A stretch of 47,740 nucleotides of DNA from Vulcanimicrobiota bacterium (GTDB lineage Bacteria > Vulcanimicrobiota > Vulcanimicrobiia > Vulcanimicrobiales > Vulcanimicrobiaceae), in NCBI GenBank assembly GCA_003135555.1, contig PLCF01000069.1:1-47740 (forward strand), written 5' to 3'. The notes beneath the pieces are model-generated. The model was not told the DNA's origin, ran no database searches, and worked only from the letters and a program-made list of their open reading frames with translations. Positions 12,812 through 21,142 of this stretch are shown here, piece after piece. Each line of letters begins with the position of its first letter. Position 1 is the stretch's first letter. The translations under genes and the position numbers were made by a program.

Positions 12812-14344
12812 TCAGAGATGCAGAAGCTGGCGGCCGGCGCGGTTGGGCGTGAAGTAGATGCGCTCGTCCGCGTAGTTCAGCGCGAGCGTGAAGTAGCGTA
12901 AGACGCCGTCGCCGATCACGCCGTCGATATCGTGGGAGTAGGCTTGCTCCGATGTCACCCGGTAGCCCAACAGATCGGCGACGCGCGCGTCGCCCAGCGT
13001 GAGCTGGTGGACGAACGCCGGGCTGACCGAGAACGCTCCGCCGACGCCGCTGAGCTTGGGGTTGTGGGCGAACGGAAACGCATCGGGCGTTTCGCGGAAC
13101 GCGAACGGGTTGCGGCGCATGAAATAGTCGAAGATCAAGAAGTTCCCCACCCCGCCGGTGTCGAGCACGAACCGCTCGGCGAGCATCCCGTCGAGCGCGA
13201 CGCTCACCAGCGGGACGCCGCGCCCCAAACGCGCGGCGAGCGCGAACGCATGCGGGTCGTCCGGGGCGCGGAACGCGGCGCCCGGGACGACGCTCACCCG
13301 GCGTCCCTCGTAGTCGATCGTCACGCCCAGCTGCGCCAAGAAATCGAAGCCCAGCAAACCCGCCATCCGCACGCCGAGGCGGTCGGCGGACCCCAACGGC
13401 ACGATGCCGACCGCGACATTGCGCATCACCAGCGCGCCCACGCGCATCTCGGGGACGACGGATCGAGCCACGGTCGTCCGCCCGGCGACCACGTGGGCGT
13501 GCTCGCCGTACAGCGGCAGCGCCAGCGCGCGAGCGACGCTGCTGTCGACCGCGATCCCCGACGACCCCGTGTCGAGCACGAATTGGTAGTCGGTCCCGCG
13601 GATCGTCACGGTGGCATAGATGTGCGAGCCGAACTGCACCGGCAGGTCGACGCTTTCGGCGCCGGGCGGAAACTCCACGAGCGTCCGGCGGCTGGGCGGG
13701 CGCGCGAGCTCGTCGTCGCTCACCATCCCCGGCGCGTAGTCGGTGACGCGCGATTCGCTCGTCGTCTGCGCGATCGAATCCTCGGCCCGCCAATGATGGG
13801 GGAAGACGCGTCCACGATCGTCGCGGAACTCGTCGTAGATCGTCGCCACGCTGCCGCTCGCGTCGGAGCGCTCGCGGCGCACCAGGTGCCAGCCCGCCGG
13901 GTCGATGTAGTCCCGGCGGCCCCAGCCTTTGGCGTTGAGGATCGCGATGAGATAGCCGTCGACCGGCGCGTGCACGCGCGCGACGCTGGTCGTGACGGGC
14001 TCCGGGAGCGCGCGCCCCGGATCGGCGTCGTCGTCGAGGCTGATGCCGTTGGCATTCTGCCGCCAGTGGCGCCCACCGATGGTCCCGCCTTCATCGTGAA
14101 ACACGCCGGTGTCGTCGATGTCGTGCTCGTCGTCACCGCGCACGATCCGGCGCTGCGTCGTCTTGGTTCCGTCGGAGGACGTGACGACGACCGTCTCCCG
14201 GTATCCCGGCGGTGCGTGTTCGGCAGCGCGCATGTTCGCGCGCAACTCGGCGGCAACCGGGAGCGCGTCCTCGGCACCGGCGAGCGCCGGCACGGAACAT
14301 GCCACAATCAGCGCCGGCAAGTGACGCCAGAAACGCGTCGTCAT
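12812..14344 (-). CDS. Secreted aspartyl protease with two retropepsin-like domains (paralog 1)
   Basis: Signal peptide; FVLDTGSS...GLLGFDFL and FVLDTGGV...DGVIG. Confidence 0.85.
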   Translation of the reverse strand: MTTRFWRHLPALIVACSVPALAGAEDALPVAAELRANMRAAEHAPPGYRETVVVTSSDGTKTTQRRIVRGDDEHDIDDTGVFHDEGGTIGGRHWRQNANGISLDDDADPGRALPEPVTTSVARVHAPVDGYLIAILNAKGWGRRDYIDPAGWHLVRRERSDASGSVATIYDEFRDDRGRVFPHHWRAEDSIAQTTSESRVTDYAPGMVSDDELARPPSRRTLVEFPPGAESVDLPVQFGSHIYATVTIRGTDYQFVLDTGSSGIAVDSSVARALALPLYGEHAHVVAGRTTVARSVVPEMRVGALVMRNVAVGIVPLGSADRLGVRMAGLLGFDFLAQLGVTIDYEGRRVSVVPGAAFRAPDDPHAFALAARLGRGVPLVSVALDGMLAERFVLDTGGVGNFLIFDYFMRRNPFAFRETPDAFPFAHNPKLSGVGGAFSVSPAFVHQLTLGDARVADLLGYRVTSEQAYSHDIDGVIGDGVLRYFTLALNYADERIYFTPNRAGRQLLHL

Positions 14345-14355
14345 AAGGGCCGACC

Positions 14356-14379
14356 TTCCGCGTGCCGGACGCGGCGCCT
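14356..14379 (-). promoter_or_regulatory. Putative promoter motif AGG-N17-GGAA, 11 nt before the protease ATG
   Basis: Same spacing recurs before four other genes in the window. Confidence 0.45.
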
Positions 14380-14622
14380 CCAAACGGCGCGAGCGTGCCC
14401 GGTGTGGTCCGTAGGCGGGTCGCGCCCTCCGGGCTGAGGGTCGGCATGCCAATTATGCGTCGGCTACCGGCTTAGTTCCAGCTTTGAGACGGGAGCGCGC
14501 CCGGCAGGAATCCGGAGGCACCTACGAAAGTGTGCCCGGGTTCAAGCCGACTTGCGGCGCCCCCCTATGTGTGAGCGGCGCGACAACGGCGCTACATCGT
14601 ATTTTCCGCGAGGTGGGAACTT

Positions 14623-15569
14623 ATGAATAGAGGCCAATTGTTGGCGATGCTATCGAGCGCCGGCGCCTTGGCAGGTTGCTCGGCACCAGGGGCGACTCGC
14701 GCCCTCACCCTCGGGCCACAGAGGAACGTTCGCTCCATCCGGATCGATGTTTCTCGACGAAGTGTACAATTCCCGATTGCCAGACCGGATGGCGTGCCGA
14801 TCCCCGCGCATGCAAACTACTTTGCCGCGGAGCAGAGGGTTGCGAGCGTTCCTCGTGACTCGACGCAGATAATCAATCCGATCTGCACGCAGGACAGCTG
14901 CGGAGGCGGTGGCGGAGGCGGAGGCGTGGCGCACAGCCTGACCTCCGATTCGACGCGGGATCTGAAACCGGCTACTATTGGGGCAGCGCTAATTACGTTG
15001 AGACTTGGTCGGGCGACGGCTCCATGCTCCTCAACCAAGCAAATTGGTCGTACAATGCGTCCGGCAATACGATTGGACTGACCTTTACCAACAGCAATGG
15101 GGATTCGATTACAGCGAGCGGTCCCGCATGGTACGACGATGGTACCTACTCGATCAACGGTGGCGCCGCCACCCTGGTCGTCTCAACTACAAACGGCACA
15201 GTAAACCTCTATCATCAAAGTGGGATCTCGTTTTCTGGCGCGTCGGACGGCACGAACATGACCCTAACCTCGACTCAGAACGGTTACTCGGTCAGCACCG
15301 TGGTGCCCCTGACCGATTTTACCCCCTATGCTTCGGTTCGTCGCAAACCGATGGGATTGCGTCATACCGAAAGCCTTCACTGCGTCGCGATAGCGATCGT
15401 CGGGCTTGCAATGATGTTGGCCATCCTGGTGACCGCATTGGCTATGATTGCGGCTGTGTGCGCAACTGCCACGCCTGCTACGTGCGCGGTGGCCGGGCTA
15501 CTGATTGCGGCCCTGGCTGAGAGGTTGATGAGAAGTGTCAAGGATTGGACGCACTCAATGGGATGTTGA
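14623..15569 (+). pseudogene. Frameshifted (or mis-assembled) lipoprotein with Cys-stapled hydrophobic C-terminal hairpin; toxin/bacteriocin-precursor-like
   Basis: ORF 14623 (MNRGQLL...LAGC lipobox) joins the frame of ORF 15024-15569 if one G is restored at about 14926 in the Gly-codon run; lower GC than flanks. Confidence 0.6.
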
Positions 15570-15576
15570 GCCTGCA

Positions 15577-15858
15577 GTGTCTACCGAACTACTGATTGAA
15601 GGTGGGGCCGTCCTCGGTTGCGCTGTCGCCATCCTCGCAATGGGAAATTCGCGAAAGCGGAGGGATCATCGCATCGCGCTGATTTGGATCGGCTTGACGA
15701 TTGTCAGCGGCGGGATCGCGGACGGCGAGGCGACCCAGGGCGATAACCCAAGCGCATATGTATTTCTCGCCGTTGCTGCGTGCACGCTCGTGCTCGGCGC
15801 TTTCTTCGCAGTGCGGGCGGCGCGTTCGTCGAGCTCGGACATCTGGAAGGGCCTCTGA
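15577..15858 (+). CDS. Small membrane protein (about 3 TM), candidate immunity protein
   Basis: GTG 7 nt after the upstream stop; three hydrophobic segments; same low-GC islet. Confidence 0.55.
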   Translation: MSTELLIEGGAVLGCAVAILAMGNSRKRRDHRIALIWIGLTIVSGGIADGEATQGDNPSAYVFLAVAACTLVLGAFFAVRAARSSSSDIWKGL

Positions 15859-15874
15859 GCCGCCGCCGGTGCCT

Positions 15875-17578
15875 TCATTGGGGGCTCGGTGAGGTGACCG
15901 GCACCGGCGCCGGCGCCGGCGCCGGTGACGGCGTCTGCGCGGGTACGGGCGGCGGCGTCGCGGCACGCGTGCGCGAGTTCGGCACGAGCGCGACGCGGGC
16001 ATTGGCGTAGTCGAGGTAGACATCGAACGCGCGCAGCGCGGAGGCGCCGATGAGCCCGTCATCGTCCTCGCCCTCGAATGCCGGCTGGTCGCCGGACATC
16101 ACCAGCGCGATCATGTCCGGGTACAGCACCTGACCGAGCTGCATCTTCTCGAGCAGGACGAGGCGCATGGTCAGCGTTCCGCCAACGCCGCTCGCGGCAA
16201 CCACGTTGAAGATGCGGCTCAGGATCTTCTTGGGGCTGTGGTCGTCGACTGCCGCCGGATGCCGCGCCGCGAAGCCGGAGAAGACCACGACCTCGTCGGC
16301 GCCGGTGTCCAGGATGAAGCGCTCGCCGATCACCTCGTTCACCTTCATCCCTACCATCGGCACGGAGTCGTCGAGGATCGTGTCGAGGATGAATGCGTTC
16401 GCGGGCGGCTTGAACGACTCGGAAGGGATCGCGTCGACCGTTCCATGGTCGTAGTCGATCTTCACGACGCAGCCGGCGATGAAGTCGAAGCCCAGCAGGC
16501 CCACCAGCCGCGTCCGCTCATCGTTCTGCTCTGAGAAGGGCAGTGCATCGACGACGACGTCCGACATGGTGACGTCGCCGATCGCGATCTTGGGGATGAT
16601 GGCGCGGCCGCTGACGAAGGTACCGGCGACCGTCGAGCTCCAGCGCCCGTATGTCTTCAAACCGAGCTGCCGTACGACGTCGCGGTCGAAGACGATCCCC
16701 GACGCGCCGGAATCGAGCTGGAAGTCCAGTCCGCGACCGTTCACGGTGAGCCGCACGATCACGCGTCCCCACCGATCGATCCGCGCCGGTAGACGCACGG
16801 TCGCGCCGCCGGCCGGCATGCTCAGCGGGAGTCGCCGGCTGCCCGGAATCGCGAGCTCCGCGTCGGCTACCGGCGTGTCGATCTGCAGGCTCTCGACTGA
16901 CCACACTTTGTCGTTTTCGGGATGACCGTCGCTCAGCGTCGTGCGATACGGTACCGTGACGGTATGGGCGGAGCGGAAATCGTCGTATGAAGCGACGACC
17001 AACTTGTCGAGGTAGGCCGTCTCGCGCCGCAACAGCCGAAGCGACGTCGCATCGTAGAAGCGCCGCTCCGCGCGGCCGTCCGGCGGCGCGACGCGCAAGA
17101 CGTAGACGTCGGCCGGCGCGCGCAGGCGCCCCAGCACGCGAACCTCTTCGCCCGGATCGGGTTTTTCGAGGGCGCGAACGTTGGCCTCGGCACGTTTGTG
17201 GATCCCGCGCTTGAGCAGCGTGTAGCCGTTCTCGTTCGTCTCCCAGAGCTGCCCTTGCGACTTGCCTTCGGCGGTGACGAACGGGCCGGTCGTTACGTCG
17301 ACCCGATAGTCGTCGCCGCTCCACACCTCGCGCTCGATACCGTCGAGCCCGCCGTCGTGAAAGGTGTAGGTAATCCGCAGGGTATGCTTGCCTTCGCCGA
17401 GCGTTCCATCGGCGCGTTGCGCCCCGTCGAGAATATCCTTGACGGTCATGGTGGTCTCTTCGTACGCCGTCGGCCAGGCGCGCGGATCGGGCGGTTTCGT
17501 CTTCGCCGGTGCAGCGGCGAGCGCTGCGGAAGCGGTAATGCAAAGCGCGACCAGCGACGCGGCCGCGCGGGCGATCAT
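15875..17578 (-). CDS. Secreted aspartyl protease with two retropepsin-like domains (paralog 2), Pro-rich tail
   Basis: Signal peptide; FQLDSGAS...GLLGFDFI, FILDTGAD...DGLIG. Confidence 0.85.
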   Translation of the reverse strand: MIARAAASLVALCITASAALAAAPAKTKPPDPRAWPTAYEETTMTVKDILDGAQRADGTLGEGKHTLRITYTFHDGGLDGIEREVWSGDDYRVDVTTGPFVTAEGKSQGQLWETNENGYTLLKRGIHKRAEANVRALEKPDPGEEVRVLGRLRAPADVYVLRVAPPDGRAERRFYDATSLRLLRRETAYLDKLVVASYDDFRSAHTVTVPYRTTLSDGHPENDKVWSVESLQIDTPVADAELAIPGSRRLPLSMPAGGATVRLPARIDRWGRVIVRLTVNGRGLDFQLDSGASGIVFDRDVVRQLGLKTYGRWSSTVAGTFVSGRAIIPKIAIGDVTMSDVVVDALPFSEQNDERTRLVGLLGFDFIAGCVVKIDYDHGTVDAIPSESFKPPANAFILDTILDDSVPMVGMKVNEVIGERFILDTGADEVVVFSGFAARHPAAVDDHSPKKILSRIFNVVAASGVGGTLTMRLVLLEKMQLGQVLYPDMIALVMSGDQPAFEGEDDDGLIGASALRAFDVYLDYANARVALVPNSRTRAATPPPVPAQTPSPAPAPAPVPVTSPSPQ

Positions 17579-19113
17579 TTGATCCCCATCGCGCGGCGGC
17601 CCTCGGTGTTCGGCGTGAGGTAGATTCGGGCGTTGCCGTAGTCGAGCCCCACCGTGAAGAGGCGCAGGAAGGCGGGTGCGATCACGCCGTCGGTCGCGCC
17701 GGGATAACTGCCGCTCGAGGTGACGCGGTAGCCGACGAACTCGCTGAAGTTGATGTTCGCCAGCTTGAGGCTCTTGATCTGGTATGCGCGCACGTCGAAC
17801 GCGCCGCCGATGCCGCTGAACCGAATCGGCCGGCTACGCGCGCCGGCGCCTTCGTCGCGCACCGCTTCGGGGTGGCGCCGCGCGAAGTAGTCGAGGATCA
17901 AGAACGTGCCGGCCCCGCCTGTGTCGAGCATGAAGCGGTCCGCCGAAGCGCCGTTGACCGACACGGTCATCAGCGGCTGACCGGACCCGAGCCGCACGTC
18001 GAGGGGCGTCGTGTGGGGATCCGCCGGAGGCCGGACGTCTTCGCCGCGCACGACCGTCACGCGCTGGTGCTCGTAGTCGATCGTCACGCCGAGCTCGGCC
18101 AAGAAGTCGAACCCCAGCAAGCCGACGGTCTTCACTCCGGCTTGCTCCACCCAGCCCTGAGGCTCGAGATGCACCATGACGTTGCGCATGCGCAGCCCGC
18201 CGACGCGCAGCTCCGGAATGATGGCGCGGGCGATAGAGTGACGCGCCGCCGTCACGGTGCTGTGCTCGGCGTAGGGCGTGATGCCGAGCTCCTTGGCGAC
18301 CTGTTCGTCCATCGCGATCCCGTACGACCCGGTGTCGAGAATGAAATCGAGCCCGCGATCCCCGGCCATCACGCGAACGTAGATGTGACCGAACGGCGCA
18401 AACCGCGTCGGCAGCTCGAGCGATCGCACCCCGGCGGGAAACTCGACGAGCGCGCGGCGCGGCATCGGGATCGCAACGTCGGCGTCTCCGACCGTGCCGC
18501 TCTCGTAGAGCGTGACGCGCGACTCGCTCGTGGTGCGCGCTACCCCGTCGTCGACGCGCCAGTGATGCGCGAACGAGCGGCCGTGATCGGCGCGAAAGTC
18601 GTCGTAGACGGTGACGATCGTGCCGTTGGGGCCGATCGACTCGCGCCGCACGACGTGCCAGGTCGCGGGATCGACATACTCCTTCGTCCCCGTGCCGCGC
18701 CCCGTCAGCGTCGCGATGACGAACGCCTCGACCGGAGTATGGACGCGCGACACCGTCGTGGTCATCGGTTCGCGAACGGACTCGGCAGGATCGGGCTGCT
18801 CGATGACGACTTGACCGTTCTCGTTCTCGTGCCAGGCTTCGTCCTTGACCGACCCGCGTTCGGTGTGGAACGGGCCGTCGTCCGAGACGACGCGGAAGTC
18901 GGACTCGCGCTGCAAGCGCAACCGCGTGACGTTCGAGCCGTCGCTCGACGTCGTGACGATCGTCTCGCGCCACACCGTTTGCGCCGGACCGCTCGCCTCG
19001 CGAACCTTCTGGCGGATCGCGGCGGCGTCGAGAACGGGCTCGTCCGCGCCCGCCGCCCCGAGCGGAAATAGCAGCAGCACCGCCGGCAAGAAACGCCACA
19101 GCCGACTCGTCAT
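17575..19113 (-). CDS. Secreted aspartyl protease with two retropepsin-like domains (paralog 3)
   Basis: Signal peptide; FILDTGSY...GLLGFDFL, FMLDTGGA...DGVI; clearly colinear with paralog 1. Confidence 0.85.
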   Translation of the reverse strand: MTSRLWRFLPAVLLLFPLGAAGADEPVLDAAAIRQKVREASGPAQTVWRETIVTTSSDGSNVTRLRLQRESDFRVVSDDGPFHTERGSVKDEAWHENENGQVVIEQPDPAESVREPMTTTVSRVHTPVEAFVIATLTGRGTGTKEYVDPATWHVVRRESIGPNGTIVTVYDDFRADHGRSFAHHWRVDDGVARTTSESRVTLYESGTVGDADVAIPMPRRALVEFPAGVRSLELPTRFAPFGHIYVRVMAGDRGLDFILDTGSYGIAMDEQVAKELGITPYAEHSTVTAARHSIARAIIPELRVGGLRMRNVMVHLEPQGWVEQAGVKTVGLLGFDFLAELGVTIDYEHQRVTVVRGEDVRPPADPHTTPLDVRLGSGQPLMTVSVNGASADRFMLDTGGAGTFLILDYFARRHPEAVRDEGAGARSRPIRFSGIGGAFDVRAYQIKSLKLANINFSEFVGYRVTSSGSYPGATDGVIAPAFLRLFTVGLDYGNARIYLTPNTEGRRAMGIK

Positions 19114-19168: not shown

Positions 19169-20401
19169 TCAGCCGCCCGTCCGCACGAAGAGATTCCAGT
19201 ACCACACGCCCCAGGCGCCGACCAGCGACGACCAGCAGATCAGCAGGACGCCCCAGTGCGGCAGCCGCTCGCGCACCCCGATCGCCATGAGCGCAAACAG
19301 GTACGGCAGAAAATCCAGCGCGTGGCGCATCCCGAACTGCACCCAGCCGTTGAGGTAGTACAAGAACTCAGGCGCCGCGACCAGCGCGGTCGTGACCCAC
19401 AGCGCGGTGACGACGTTGCGCGGCGTGCGGGCCAAGAACGCCAACACCAGCGCCGGGCTCGTGAAGGTCAGCGCGATCCCGGTGGTGTCGGGTTTCACGT
19501 ACGGCCACTGCACCTTTTGCAGCCATTCGACCAGCACCGGAGCGCGGAAGAAGAACGAGTAGATTTGGTACGGCACGTACGCGAGCTGGAACGGCGAGCC
19601 GGCCGGTGAGCCCCAGGCGTCGGCGTGGTAGTACACCGTGTGCCCGATGTCGATGACCGTGCCCCACATCAACTCGTCGTAGCCGATGAAAGCGACCGCC
19701 CAGCCCGCCAGCACCGTGCCGAACGCGCGCAGCCGCGCCCAGCGCTGCGCACGCGTCGGCGCGACGCCGCGGAACGCGCCGGTCCACAGCGCCCAGCCAA
19801 AGAGCGGCAGCGCCGCGACCTCGGGGAAACGCGCGCCGCAGGCCAGGACGACGCACAGGCCCACCAGCCAGCCGCGCGACTTTCCGCACAGCTCGACCAA
19901 TGCGGCCAGGATGAACGTGACGGCGCACAGATGCGCGAGGAACCACACGTCGCCGAGTTCGGCGCACCACCACACGTCGGTGCCGGCGACGAAGAACAGC
20001 ACCAGAAAGATCTTGGTCGTCATGTCGGTGACGCCCAGGCGCCCGCACAGCACCCACGCCAGCGCCGCCGCGAGCGCGGCGAACGCGATCGCGACCGTGG
20101 TCTGGTTCGCGTTGTTGCCCCAGATCGCCACGGCCGGGAGCATGAAGATCGCCGGGACCGGGCCGTCGACGCCGTAGTAGTGGCCGTTGTACTGCACGGC
20201 GTCCATCCAGCGACCCGGCCAATCGATCCACATCCGGCCGTGCAGCCAAGCATACGCGACCCGGACATAGTTGTTTTGCTGGGTCGAACGCAGGTGCGAG
20301 CTGGCCAGAATGACGAGAAACGTGGCGACCCCGGTGGTGGCCGGGCCGGCGAACCGGCGCAAGGACACTGCCGTGGTCCGGAAGCGGGACGCGGCGACCA
20401 T
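19169..20401 (-). CDS. Polytopic membrane protein, possibly GT-C-fold glycosyltransferase-like
   Basis: About 10 hydrophobic segments, extracytoplasmic loop with D..YNGHYY..GP.P, C-terminal GWVQFGMRH; start uncertain. Confidence 0.6.
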   Translation of the reverse strand: MVAASRFRTTAVSLRRFAGPATTGVATFLVILASSHLRSTQQNNYVRVAYAWLHGRMWIDWPGRWMDAVQYNGHYYGVDGPVPAIFMLPAVAIWGNNANQTTVAIAFAALAAALAWVLCGRLGVTDMTTKIFLVLFFVAGTDVWWCAELGDVWFLAHLCAVTFILAALVELCGKSRGWLVGLCVVLACGARFPEVAALPLFGWALWTGAFRGVAPTRAQRWARLRAFGTVLAGWAVAFIGYDELMWGTVIDIGHTVYYHADAWGSPAGSPFQLAYVPYQIYSFFFRAPVLVEWLQKVQWPYVKPDTTGIALTFTSPALVLAFLARTPRNVVTALWVTTALVAAPEFLYYLNGWVQFGMRHALDFLPYLFALMAIGVRERLPHWGVLLICWSSLVGAWGVWYWNLFVRTGG

Positions 20402-20464
20402 CTTCGGCGCCCTCGATTCGGCCGAACGTAACCGCGGCCCCGCCGCGGTGGTAGAAAGGATGCG

Positions 20465-21142
20465 ATGTACCAACCACGCTCACCCTACGGCAGCTCCCCC
20501 GCGGGGGGTCCGCCCTATGGCTCCCAAGCCGGTAGCGTCCCCGGCCTGCTCGGCCAGGTCATGGGGATCACCGGCGTCGGTTTCCTGATCACCGCGACGG
20601 CGGCGTACGTATTTCGCGGTATCTCGCCGATCGGCGGCTTGATCGCGTTTTTCGCCGGGTTCGCCATCCTGTTCGTGATGAACTCAGTGCGCGAGAGCCC
20701 GCAGGTGGCGCTGCTGTGGTTCTACGCCTTCACGTTCCTCGAAGGGGTGGGTCTCGCGCCCACGATCGCCCGCTACGCGAACGCCGTCGGCCCCGACGTC
20801 GTCGTGAGCGCGGCTGCGACGACCGGATTCGGCATGCTCGTGCTGGGCGGCGTGGCGTTCGTGTTCTCGATCGATTGGCGGCGCTTCAGCGGCATCGCCT
20901 TCGGTGCGCTGATCGCCCTGATCATCGTCGGACTCGTCTCGGCGTTCACCAACTGGGTGCACCCGACCACGTACTCCTGGCTCGTGCTGGGCGTGTTCAC
21001 GCTGCTGACCTTGGTGGACTTCAGCCGCATTCGTGCCGGCGGCGGCGGTTCGACGCCGGTGGAGCTCGCCGTCGCGATCTACCTCGACGCGATCAACATC
21101 TTCCTCGCCTTGCTCCGTCTGTTCGGTTCGCGCCGGGGTTAA
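20465..21142 (+). CDS. Bax inhibitor-1/YccA family membrane protein
   Basis: About 7 TM; C-terminal AIYLDAINIFLALLRL. Confidence 0.88.
   Translation: MYQPRSPYGSSPAGGPPYGSQAGSVPGLLGQVMGITGVGFLITATAAYVFRGISPIGGLIAFFAGFAILFVMNSVRESPQVALLWFYAFTFLEGVGLAPTIARYANAVGPDVVVSAAATTGFGMLVLGGVAFVFSIDWRRFSGIAFGALIALIIVGLVSAFTNWVHPTTYSWLVLGVFTLLTLVDFSRIRAGGGGSTPVELAVAIYLDAINIFLALLRLFGSRRG

Follow-up and report, generated by a model that had tools for sequence, protein, structure and literature searches.

In polymorphic toxin systems, a conserved N-terminal part is combined with interchangeable, non-homologous toxin ends, and toxin tips also occur with their immunity genes as orphan modules. In the SdpC/SdpI system of Bacillus, a C-terminal hydrophobic disulfide peptide is derived from an exported precursor and immunity resides in a membrane protein. 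Two helices stapled by nested disulfides are found in glycocins such as sublancin.

The SitA/SitI pairs of myxobacteria, as far as the published accounts cited here describe them, comprise a lipobox followed by a disordered stretch, an N-terminal escort and a C-terminal effector, with the immunity gene downstream (PMC5562445, PMC8546572). The SitA effectors are swappable cytoplasmic nucleases behind an escort domain of ~375 aa, and TraAB outer-membrane exchange is required (PMC5562445, PMC8546572). ProC8, the precursor of halocin C8, is described as a 283-aa protein exported by Tat with a 76-aa C-terminal effector, and its immunity function (HalI) is built into the N-terminal part of the same protein (bioRxiv 10.64898/2026.07.27.741052). 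The pore domain of colicins has a hairpin buried among eight amphipathic helices, release is by lysis, and the immunity proteins of pore-forming colicins are normally found in the cytoplasmic membrane; other antibacterial pore formers with membrane immunity in the same account are Tse4/Tsi4, VasX/TsiV2 and TspA/TsaI (PMC9558359).

The window analysed here, a 47,740-nucleotide stretch of DNA from a Vulcanimicrobiota bacterium, carries a lipoprotein gene followed directly by a gene for a small membrane protein. In layout this cassette is closest to SitA/SitI, and by analogy it would work most like that system, with a predicted effector and membrane antidote like those of pore-forming colicins. 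The features shared with SitA/SitI, as these are described, are the lipobox, a disordered stretch, an escort-like N-terminal part, a predicted C-terminal effector, frequent location on mobile DNA and, as is likely here, a host with two membranes. A gene also lies directly downstream in 10 of the 11 other loci of the family, a likeness in layout only, immunity being a prediction here. Unlike SitA in these accounts, the protein is ~300 aa in all, ends in one homologous four-cysteine helix hairpin and has an integral membrane partner. Searches of Pfam and NCBIfam matched no SitA-type nuclease end behind the escort domain, and no sequence link to SitA was found.

The comparison with halocin C8 goes back to the first-pass annotation of this DNA. 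In the published description ProC8 is of similar size and has a short C-terminal effector (62 aa here, predicted) and Tat export, the signal here being Tat-like; unlike ProC8, the precursor has a lipobox and is followed by a separate membrane gene. Kinship is not upheld, in that TIGR04449 was found in 0 of 19 family members at E<=0.5, in 0 of 4 isolated tails and nowhere in the genome by a search in which the Haloferax control was positive, and the HalI domain PF22862 matched none of the 19 members. As in the colicins so described, a hydrophobic helical hairpin is the predicted inserting unit and the putative cognate immunity protein is predicted to lie in the membrane; unlike in them, the hairpin is a bare, cysteine-locked pair of helices placed after a beta domain on a lipoprotein. 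Instead of the eight-helix bundle, the AlphaFold2 model (mean pLDDT 65.8) has two C-terminal helices only.

The predicted combination of a C-terminal hydrophobic disulfide peptide with membrane immunity also resembles Sdp in layout, but membership of the SdpC family (TIGR04032) is not borne out, with only 1 of 19 members matching, at E 0.29. Two helices with predicted nested disulfides recall the glycocins; unlike in glycocins, the arms are much longer (~25 residues) and modifying enzymes do not recur. An orphan module of tail and partner (one case, L090), patchy spread and allelic variation at one site are reminiscent of polymorphic toxins, from which the family differs in that the tails are homologous in 27 of 27 proteins, with no interchangeable non-homologous ends.

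The lipoprotein gene and its two alleles

The lipoprotein gene (positions 14623..15569, + strand) encodes 315 aa when intact and is frameshifted in the window, as judged from the open reading frames and from comparison with P0007. The latter is the natural form of the 315-aa protein that had been reconstructed in the first-pass annotation: it occurs on 6 contigs and is otherwise identical. The 181-aa downstream piece of the split gene is found on 5 contigs. Comparison with P0007 and with metagenome runs places the natural one-base frameshift at about position 14926 (+). The runs containing window DNA are peat metagenomes, and no RNA dataset is among the runs listed. Contigs from three of the four runs compared (8 runs are listed) agree with the window letter for letter, frameshift included; the fourth run has the intact allele with one substitution. 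It should be noted that the three frameshift runs are possibly the source of the window DNA and are thus not independent proof of the frameshift; even so, an assembly error is unlikely. Evidently, both an intact and a frameshifted allele exist in peat. The 93-aa partner gene beside the frameshifted lipoprotein gene is intact.

The gene begins with a signal peptide and lipobox (14623..14679, +) whose start is degenerate and Tat-like, with a single Arg; the LAGC lipobox recognized earlier is genuine, and its lipidation-type cysteine is Cys19. The basic pro-region that follows (14680..14883, +) has a net charge of +5, carries the family motif FPxxRPDG of our alignment (A4) at 14770-14793, and includes a pair of strands (residues 36-47) in the AlphaFold2 model. 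Next comes a poly-Gly linker with a cysteine pair (14884..14925, +), which is missing from several homologues; the pair had been read as C-x5-C (CxxxxxC), but is C-x4-C in intact P0007. An acidic all-beta domain with the motif Y.E.WD..G.L..Q spans residues about 108-229 (14943..15308, +), and no known fold was matched to it.

The protein ends in a four-cysteine helical hairpin (15381..15566, +; Cys254, Cys280, Cys288 and Cys315), the predicted toxic part. As first described, this tail is 62 aa long with cysteines at positions 1, 27, 35 and 62, i.e. C-x25-C-x7-C-x26-C followed by the stop. Of the two long hydrophobic or amphipathic helices attributed to it, the first is strongly hydrophobic, whereas the second is amphipathic rather than strongly hydrophobic (best 19-residue Kyte-Doolittle means of 2.79 and 1.49, respectively). 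RRKPM is not a conserved basic cleavage site, since GRQTM and GRQAQ stand in its place in two 62%-identical homologues, and the alignment of 27 proteins contains no conserved cleavage motif before Cys254.

In the full-length AlphaFold2 model (mean pLDDT 65.8, pTM 0.55), a 12-strand beta region is followed by helices at residues 248-280 and 285-312. Foldseek gave no match at E<=0.001, an absence that does not make the fold new, and the best VIA-align result (Z 5.6, rmsd 3.4, 99 aligned) lies within background.

The insertion site and the host genome

The cassette occupies a low-GC islet of ~1.5 kb (14345..15874) between two aspartyl-protease genes, in which GC falls to 0.55. Earlier statements about this islet proved accurate, both as to base composition (27/60 GC at 15181-15240) and as to strand and position, the islet being read from the + strand and flanked on either side by an Asp_protease_2 gene of the - strand. 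GC3 is 0.65 in both halves of the lipoprotein gene, compared with 0.86-0.89 in three proteases and purD. By their Asp_protease_2 matches and the gene order of relatives, protease 1 (12812..14344, -) and protease 2 (15875..17578, -) belong to the same interrupted host operon and lie outside the cassette. Orthologues of both abut in genomes G025 and G022, where the site is empty, and the islet is covered by none among the matches listed from 43 other genomes of the genus. The contiguity of the proteases in these two relatives marks the islet as a recent arrival in an older protease operon.

Release of the tail by these flanking proteases, as had been suggested, is rejected, because the operon that the islet splits is contiguous in relatives and an aspartyl protease is near only 1 of the 11 other loci. 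This is L060, where the protease is at a distance of about 3.2 kb and the partner gene is missing. Judging from gene order, the proximity of the cassette to the proteases is a coincidence of insertion site.

The window belongs to contig C41 of genome G000, which is 3.57 Mb in size, 68% GC and 84% complete. Genes for Omp85, TatC and LspA were all found in it, and the host is thus likely a two-membrane, lipoprotein-competent bacterium. No sigma-70 promoter, terminator or Rfam match was found at the islet. Upstream of the lipoprotein start, a stable hairpin is present at 14494-14560 (z -2.49 for 14470-14630), without an Rfam match. The protease genes are part of an array of three tandem secreted aspartyl-protease genes behind purD (12812-19113, -), two of which contain two Asp_protease_2 stretches each; the array reappears in other members of the genus, where its copy number and order vary. 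Beside the array, a gene at 19169-20473 (-) encodes a 434-aa multi-pass membrane protein without a Pfam match.

A family of lipoproteins with a cysteine hairpin

A first profile made from three close homologues was searched against 1.84 billion representative proteins and recovered 21 proteins at E<=0.001, one of which, a 1093-aa repeat protein (E 6e-4), was discarded. A 19-sequence profile detected the lipoprotein family in 12 of the 385 genomes searched from the class; these 12 belong to one family and to 5 of 89 genera. None of the conclusions depends on G032, an unpublished genome. An earlier-stage search gave weak matches in six non-self genomes, the one examined being L002, and most weak matches of the 50-genome search cover the signal peptide only. 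Pattern scans with the close clade detected no relative in metagenome or viral contigs and one 35-residue match in genome contigs. Two tail matches were discarded, namely one in G198 that falls inside a glycosyltransferase and one in G367 that falls inside an unrelated small membrane ORF.

The precursors (19 members), tails and partners have no Pfam or NCBIfam match at cut-off. A PDB sequence search gave no family match (best E 0.0068, a designed beta-barrel), nor did the ESM Atlas, where the best feature scores of 0.75 and 0.82 are leads only, and no description of the family was found in the literature searched. On sequence criteria, the lipoprotein/hairpin family is real and previously undescribed, and belongs to none of the known systems with which it was compared.

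The order of parts is constant in the 27 aligned proteins, which include 16 from metagenomes and have a mean column identity of 30%: a lipoprotein signal (Tat-like or Sec), the FPxxRPDG pro-region, an optional C-x4-C/Gly linker, the acidic beta domain and the tail. RR is present in the n-region of 6 of 23 family signals and most have one Arg, with TatC found in the genome as noted above. Tat-like lipoprotein starts with Ala, Ser or Gly in place of the second Arg are common in the lineage (L081, L083, L084, L088 and the family N-termini).

The outer cysteine pair of the tail, Cys254 and Cys315, is invariant (27/27). The inner pair, Cys280 and Cys288, is present in 25 of 27 proteins and is lost together in L053 and L054, and also in the related L090. 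This joint loss in one clade, with the outer pair kept, fits the nested disulfides proposed in the first-pass annotation (first to fourth and second to third cysteine); it counts as only one event, however, and the cysteine columns are among those that the profile by its nature prefers. The hairpin arms are 24-28 residues long (the first is 25 in 21 of 25) and the loop 5-13, and the conservation of arm length while the loop varies, together with the joint loss, fits an antiparallel hairpin. In 6 of the 27 tails no helix is strongly hydrophobic, the best mean staying below 1.6; among the metagenome proteins, P0013, P0019 and P0021 have polar tails. Beta domain and tail are equally variable, with mean identities of 0.23 and 0.24, respectively.

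The small membrane protein encoded downstream

The gene at 15577..15858 (+) is intact and encodes a 93-aa small membrane protein, the predicted cognate immunity protein, with relatives at 89% and 63% identity. It is the hydrophobic ORF seen in the first pass, starting with GTG at 15577, 7 nt after the lipoprotein stop. The contigs of the relative at 63%, P0028, and of the lipoprotein homologue P0006 are equal in length, from which we infer that they are one contig. In 10 of 11 other loci, a hydrophobic ORF of 64-126 aa has its start between -14 and +25 nt relative to the lipoprotein stop, whereas the same rule finds a partner-like ORF after 24 of 1250 ordinary genes of the window's own genome; the loss of this gene from homologues, named beforehand as an argument against a toxin/immunity reading, is thus not what was observed. 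Since the pair recurs in other genomes, the association is more than chance. The partners of the other loci (64-126 aa, GRAVY 0.63-1.11) match no immunity family. In an additional member, the metagenome locus L107, the partner has 93 aa and overlaps the lipoprotein stop. In 5 of 5 pairs of partner ORFs the third codon positions are those that change most, so that these ORFs behave as genes.

In a post hoc grouping that excludes the window, a partner follows 11 of 11 genes that end <=5 residues after the last cysteine and 1 of 6 genes that are extended past it. L060 and four distant genes (two in L089, one each in L091 and L092) have a long low-complexity extension after the last cysteine and no partner, so that the hairpin can exist without one. 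The distant subfamily (L089:4242-6907, L091:4451-5839 and L092:4350-5366) consists of lipoproteins with a beta domain, a cysteine hairpin and a Pro/Thr- or Pro/Ser-rich tail, and lacks FPxxRPDG as well as the partner; G018 has a tandem pair.

Pairing of tails with partners, and mobility of the unit

Among 66 pairs of partners, only 4 show clear homology (z 24-49), all other pairs having z <= 4.6, and these 4 are exactly the pairs with a tail identity of 0.52-0.63. Beta-domain identity is likewise high in the 4 matched pairs (0.45-0.67). In the full set of 66 pairs, however, the similarity of the partners is not rank-correlated with tail identity (rho 0.10, p 0.41), but it is with the signal plus pro-region (0.44) and the beta domain (0.36). 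Trees of the N-terminal part and of the tail are mostly congruent, the tail tree being poorly resolved and one weak conflict concerning P0011/15/16/18, and the pairing could thus stem from whole-locus descent; the loci are related and not independent of each other.

At one chromosomal site of one genus, with flanks about 80-82% identical, L056, L057 and L059 carry the unit with signal plus pro-region identities of 0.57-0.62. L057 and L059 have a tail identity of 0.52 and the same partner type, and the tail of L056, at 0.32 to each of them, goes with an unrelated partner type. Separate examination of the N-terminal part and the tail, from which variable tails each with a cognate membrane gene had been expected, thus bears out the expectation in that partner type tracks tail type, but not in that the tails are swappable, all of them being one homologous family. 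Two extra small membrane ORFs follow the partner in L057 (7320-8108) and L059 (7639-8166); they are partly interrelated (z 7.6-27) and unrelated to the cognate partners, and L056 retains just a stub of the first. They are possible spare immunity genes.

A search of 385 genomes with the tail profile revealed one orphan module, L090 in G035, in which the ~90 last codons (the tail) and the partner are present at low GC without the N-terminal part. The 11 loci lie in 9 different kinds of neighbourhood, and an integrase, IS, resolvase or tRNA is near 5 of them.

A proposed toxin and its antidote

Taken together, the downstream partner, the tail-linked partner type, the orphan module and the mobility make up a toxin/immunity signature. 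From these sequence features, we consider it probable (roughly 60%) that the cassette is a mobile two-gene unit for a lipoprotein-borne, membrane-damaging antibacterial toxin and its cognate inner-membrane immunity protein, with the toxin gene frameshifted here. What stands of the toxin/immunity cassette first suggested is the retained membrane gene, the partner that follows the tail and the orphan module, and not protease release or kinship with halocin C8. The mild hydrophobicity of 6 of 27 tails counts against the toxin reading, and no lysis or secretion-system gene was found near the cassette.

In the proposed mechanism, the precursor would be exported by Tat or Sec and receive a lipid at Cys19, and would then stay on the cell surface or in outer-membrane vesicles. 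The basic pro-region and the acidic beta domain probably shield and escort the hydrophobic tail. With disulfides Cys254-Cys315 and Cys280-Cys288 in place, the tail would be fixed in the shape of an antiparallel hairpin, and this hairpin is predicted to insert into the cytoplasmic membrane of a neighbouring cell, form oligomers and dissipate the membrane potential. The partner, with its 2-4 helices, would bind and block the hairpin within the membrane of the producer. The window allele, with a broken toxin gene and an intact partner, would then be an immune non-producer. DsbB, VKOR and LolA were not found in the 84%-complete genome, despite its Omp85 and its Cys-rich exported proteins, which counts against the proposed mechanism as regards disulfide formation and sorting.

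If the toxin reading is true, the family would be an unrecognised antibacterial one with a minimal disulfide-stabilised membrane effector, and its about a dozen effector/antidote pairs would form a natural set small enough for cross-testing in E. coli. The family would reveal the way in which a transmembrane hairpin is recognised by small membrane proteins. It would also open a first way into kin conflict in a peat and soil lineage that is for the most part uncultured, and in which the intact and frameshifted peat alleles would constitute a natural pair of producer and immune non-producer. A bolder version, to which we give somewhat less than even odds, is that of a new class of lipoprotein bacteriocin in which a 60-residue, doubly stapled transmembrane hairpin is the whole pore-forming warhead, a lipid-anchored beta domain the escort, and many independently recruited small membrane proteins the antidotes, orphan modules and additional antidote genes being part of the picture. 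Outside the myxobacteria, such a class would be the membrane-targeting counterpart of SitA, and it would imply that lipoproteins are exchanged by contact or through vesicles in the phylum.

Cognate pairing and translational coupling would fit any two binding partners, and some tails are insufficiently hydrophobic for a pore; the small protein might thus cooperate with the hairpin as its membrane receptor, chaperone or assembly partner, e.g. in a module for ligand sensing or self-recognition. Many unrelated types are usual among immunity proteins and not among receptors for a single ligand family, and the partners of this one homologous hairpin are of many such types. In addition, no signalling domain or regulator recurs among the neighbours and the orphan tail of L090 is without an export signal, and we regard a cooperating pair as unlikely. 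The hairpin could also belong to a plain surface protein, in which an adhesin-like beta domain would use it as an additional membrane anchor or as a stalk for oligomerisation, the small gene being incidental. The four distant genes in which a Pro/Thr-rich tail and no partner follow the hairpin point in this direction, as does a beta domain as variable as the tail (0.23 vs 0.24), and for the distant extended subfamily such an explanation may be right. For the cassette itself its chances are slim, given the small-gene association (10/11 vs 24/1250), the partners that track tails at one site and the existence of an orphan module.

Two-gene membrane cassettes that are mobile and patchy in distribution, with integrases and tRNAs nearby, would also be in keeping with a surface lipoprotein and a small membrane protein that prevent phages from entering, abort their entry or keep out mobile elements. 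This is rather improbable, in that no close-clade relative was found in viral contigs (by one narrow query), a Pfam scan detected no known defence gene among 81 neighbours, and an orphan of tail and partner would not be expected. Finally, the layout may be that of a toxin with self-protection whose target is not kin, namely distant bacteria, archaea or grazing protists, since hydrophobic disulfide-locked hairpins presumably need no protein receptor. Allele-specific partners that have diversified at one site point instead to close-kin conflict, and we consider a non-kin target highly improbable.

Genes beside other copies of the cassette

In L107, a second lipoprotein gene (1680-2807, -) faces the cassette; its product has a signal like that of the family and a helical body, and its hydrophobic C-terminal hairpin terminates in Cys followed by an acidic tail. 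It has no homology to the tail profile, and no partner was seen. Other candidate antagonism loci adjoin the cassette in two cases, with a gene for a LodA-type lysine oxidase and that for its flavoprotein nearby in L053 (835-4065), and a LanC-like gene nearby in L054 (1780-3132).
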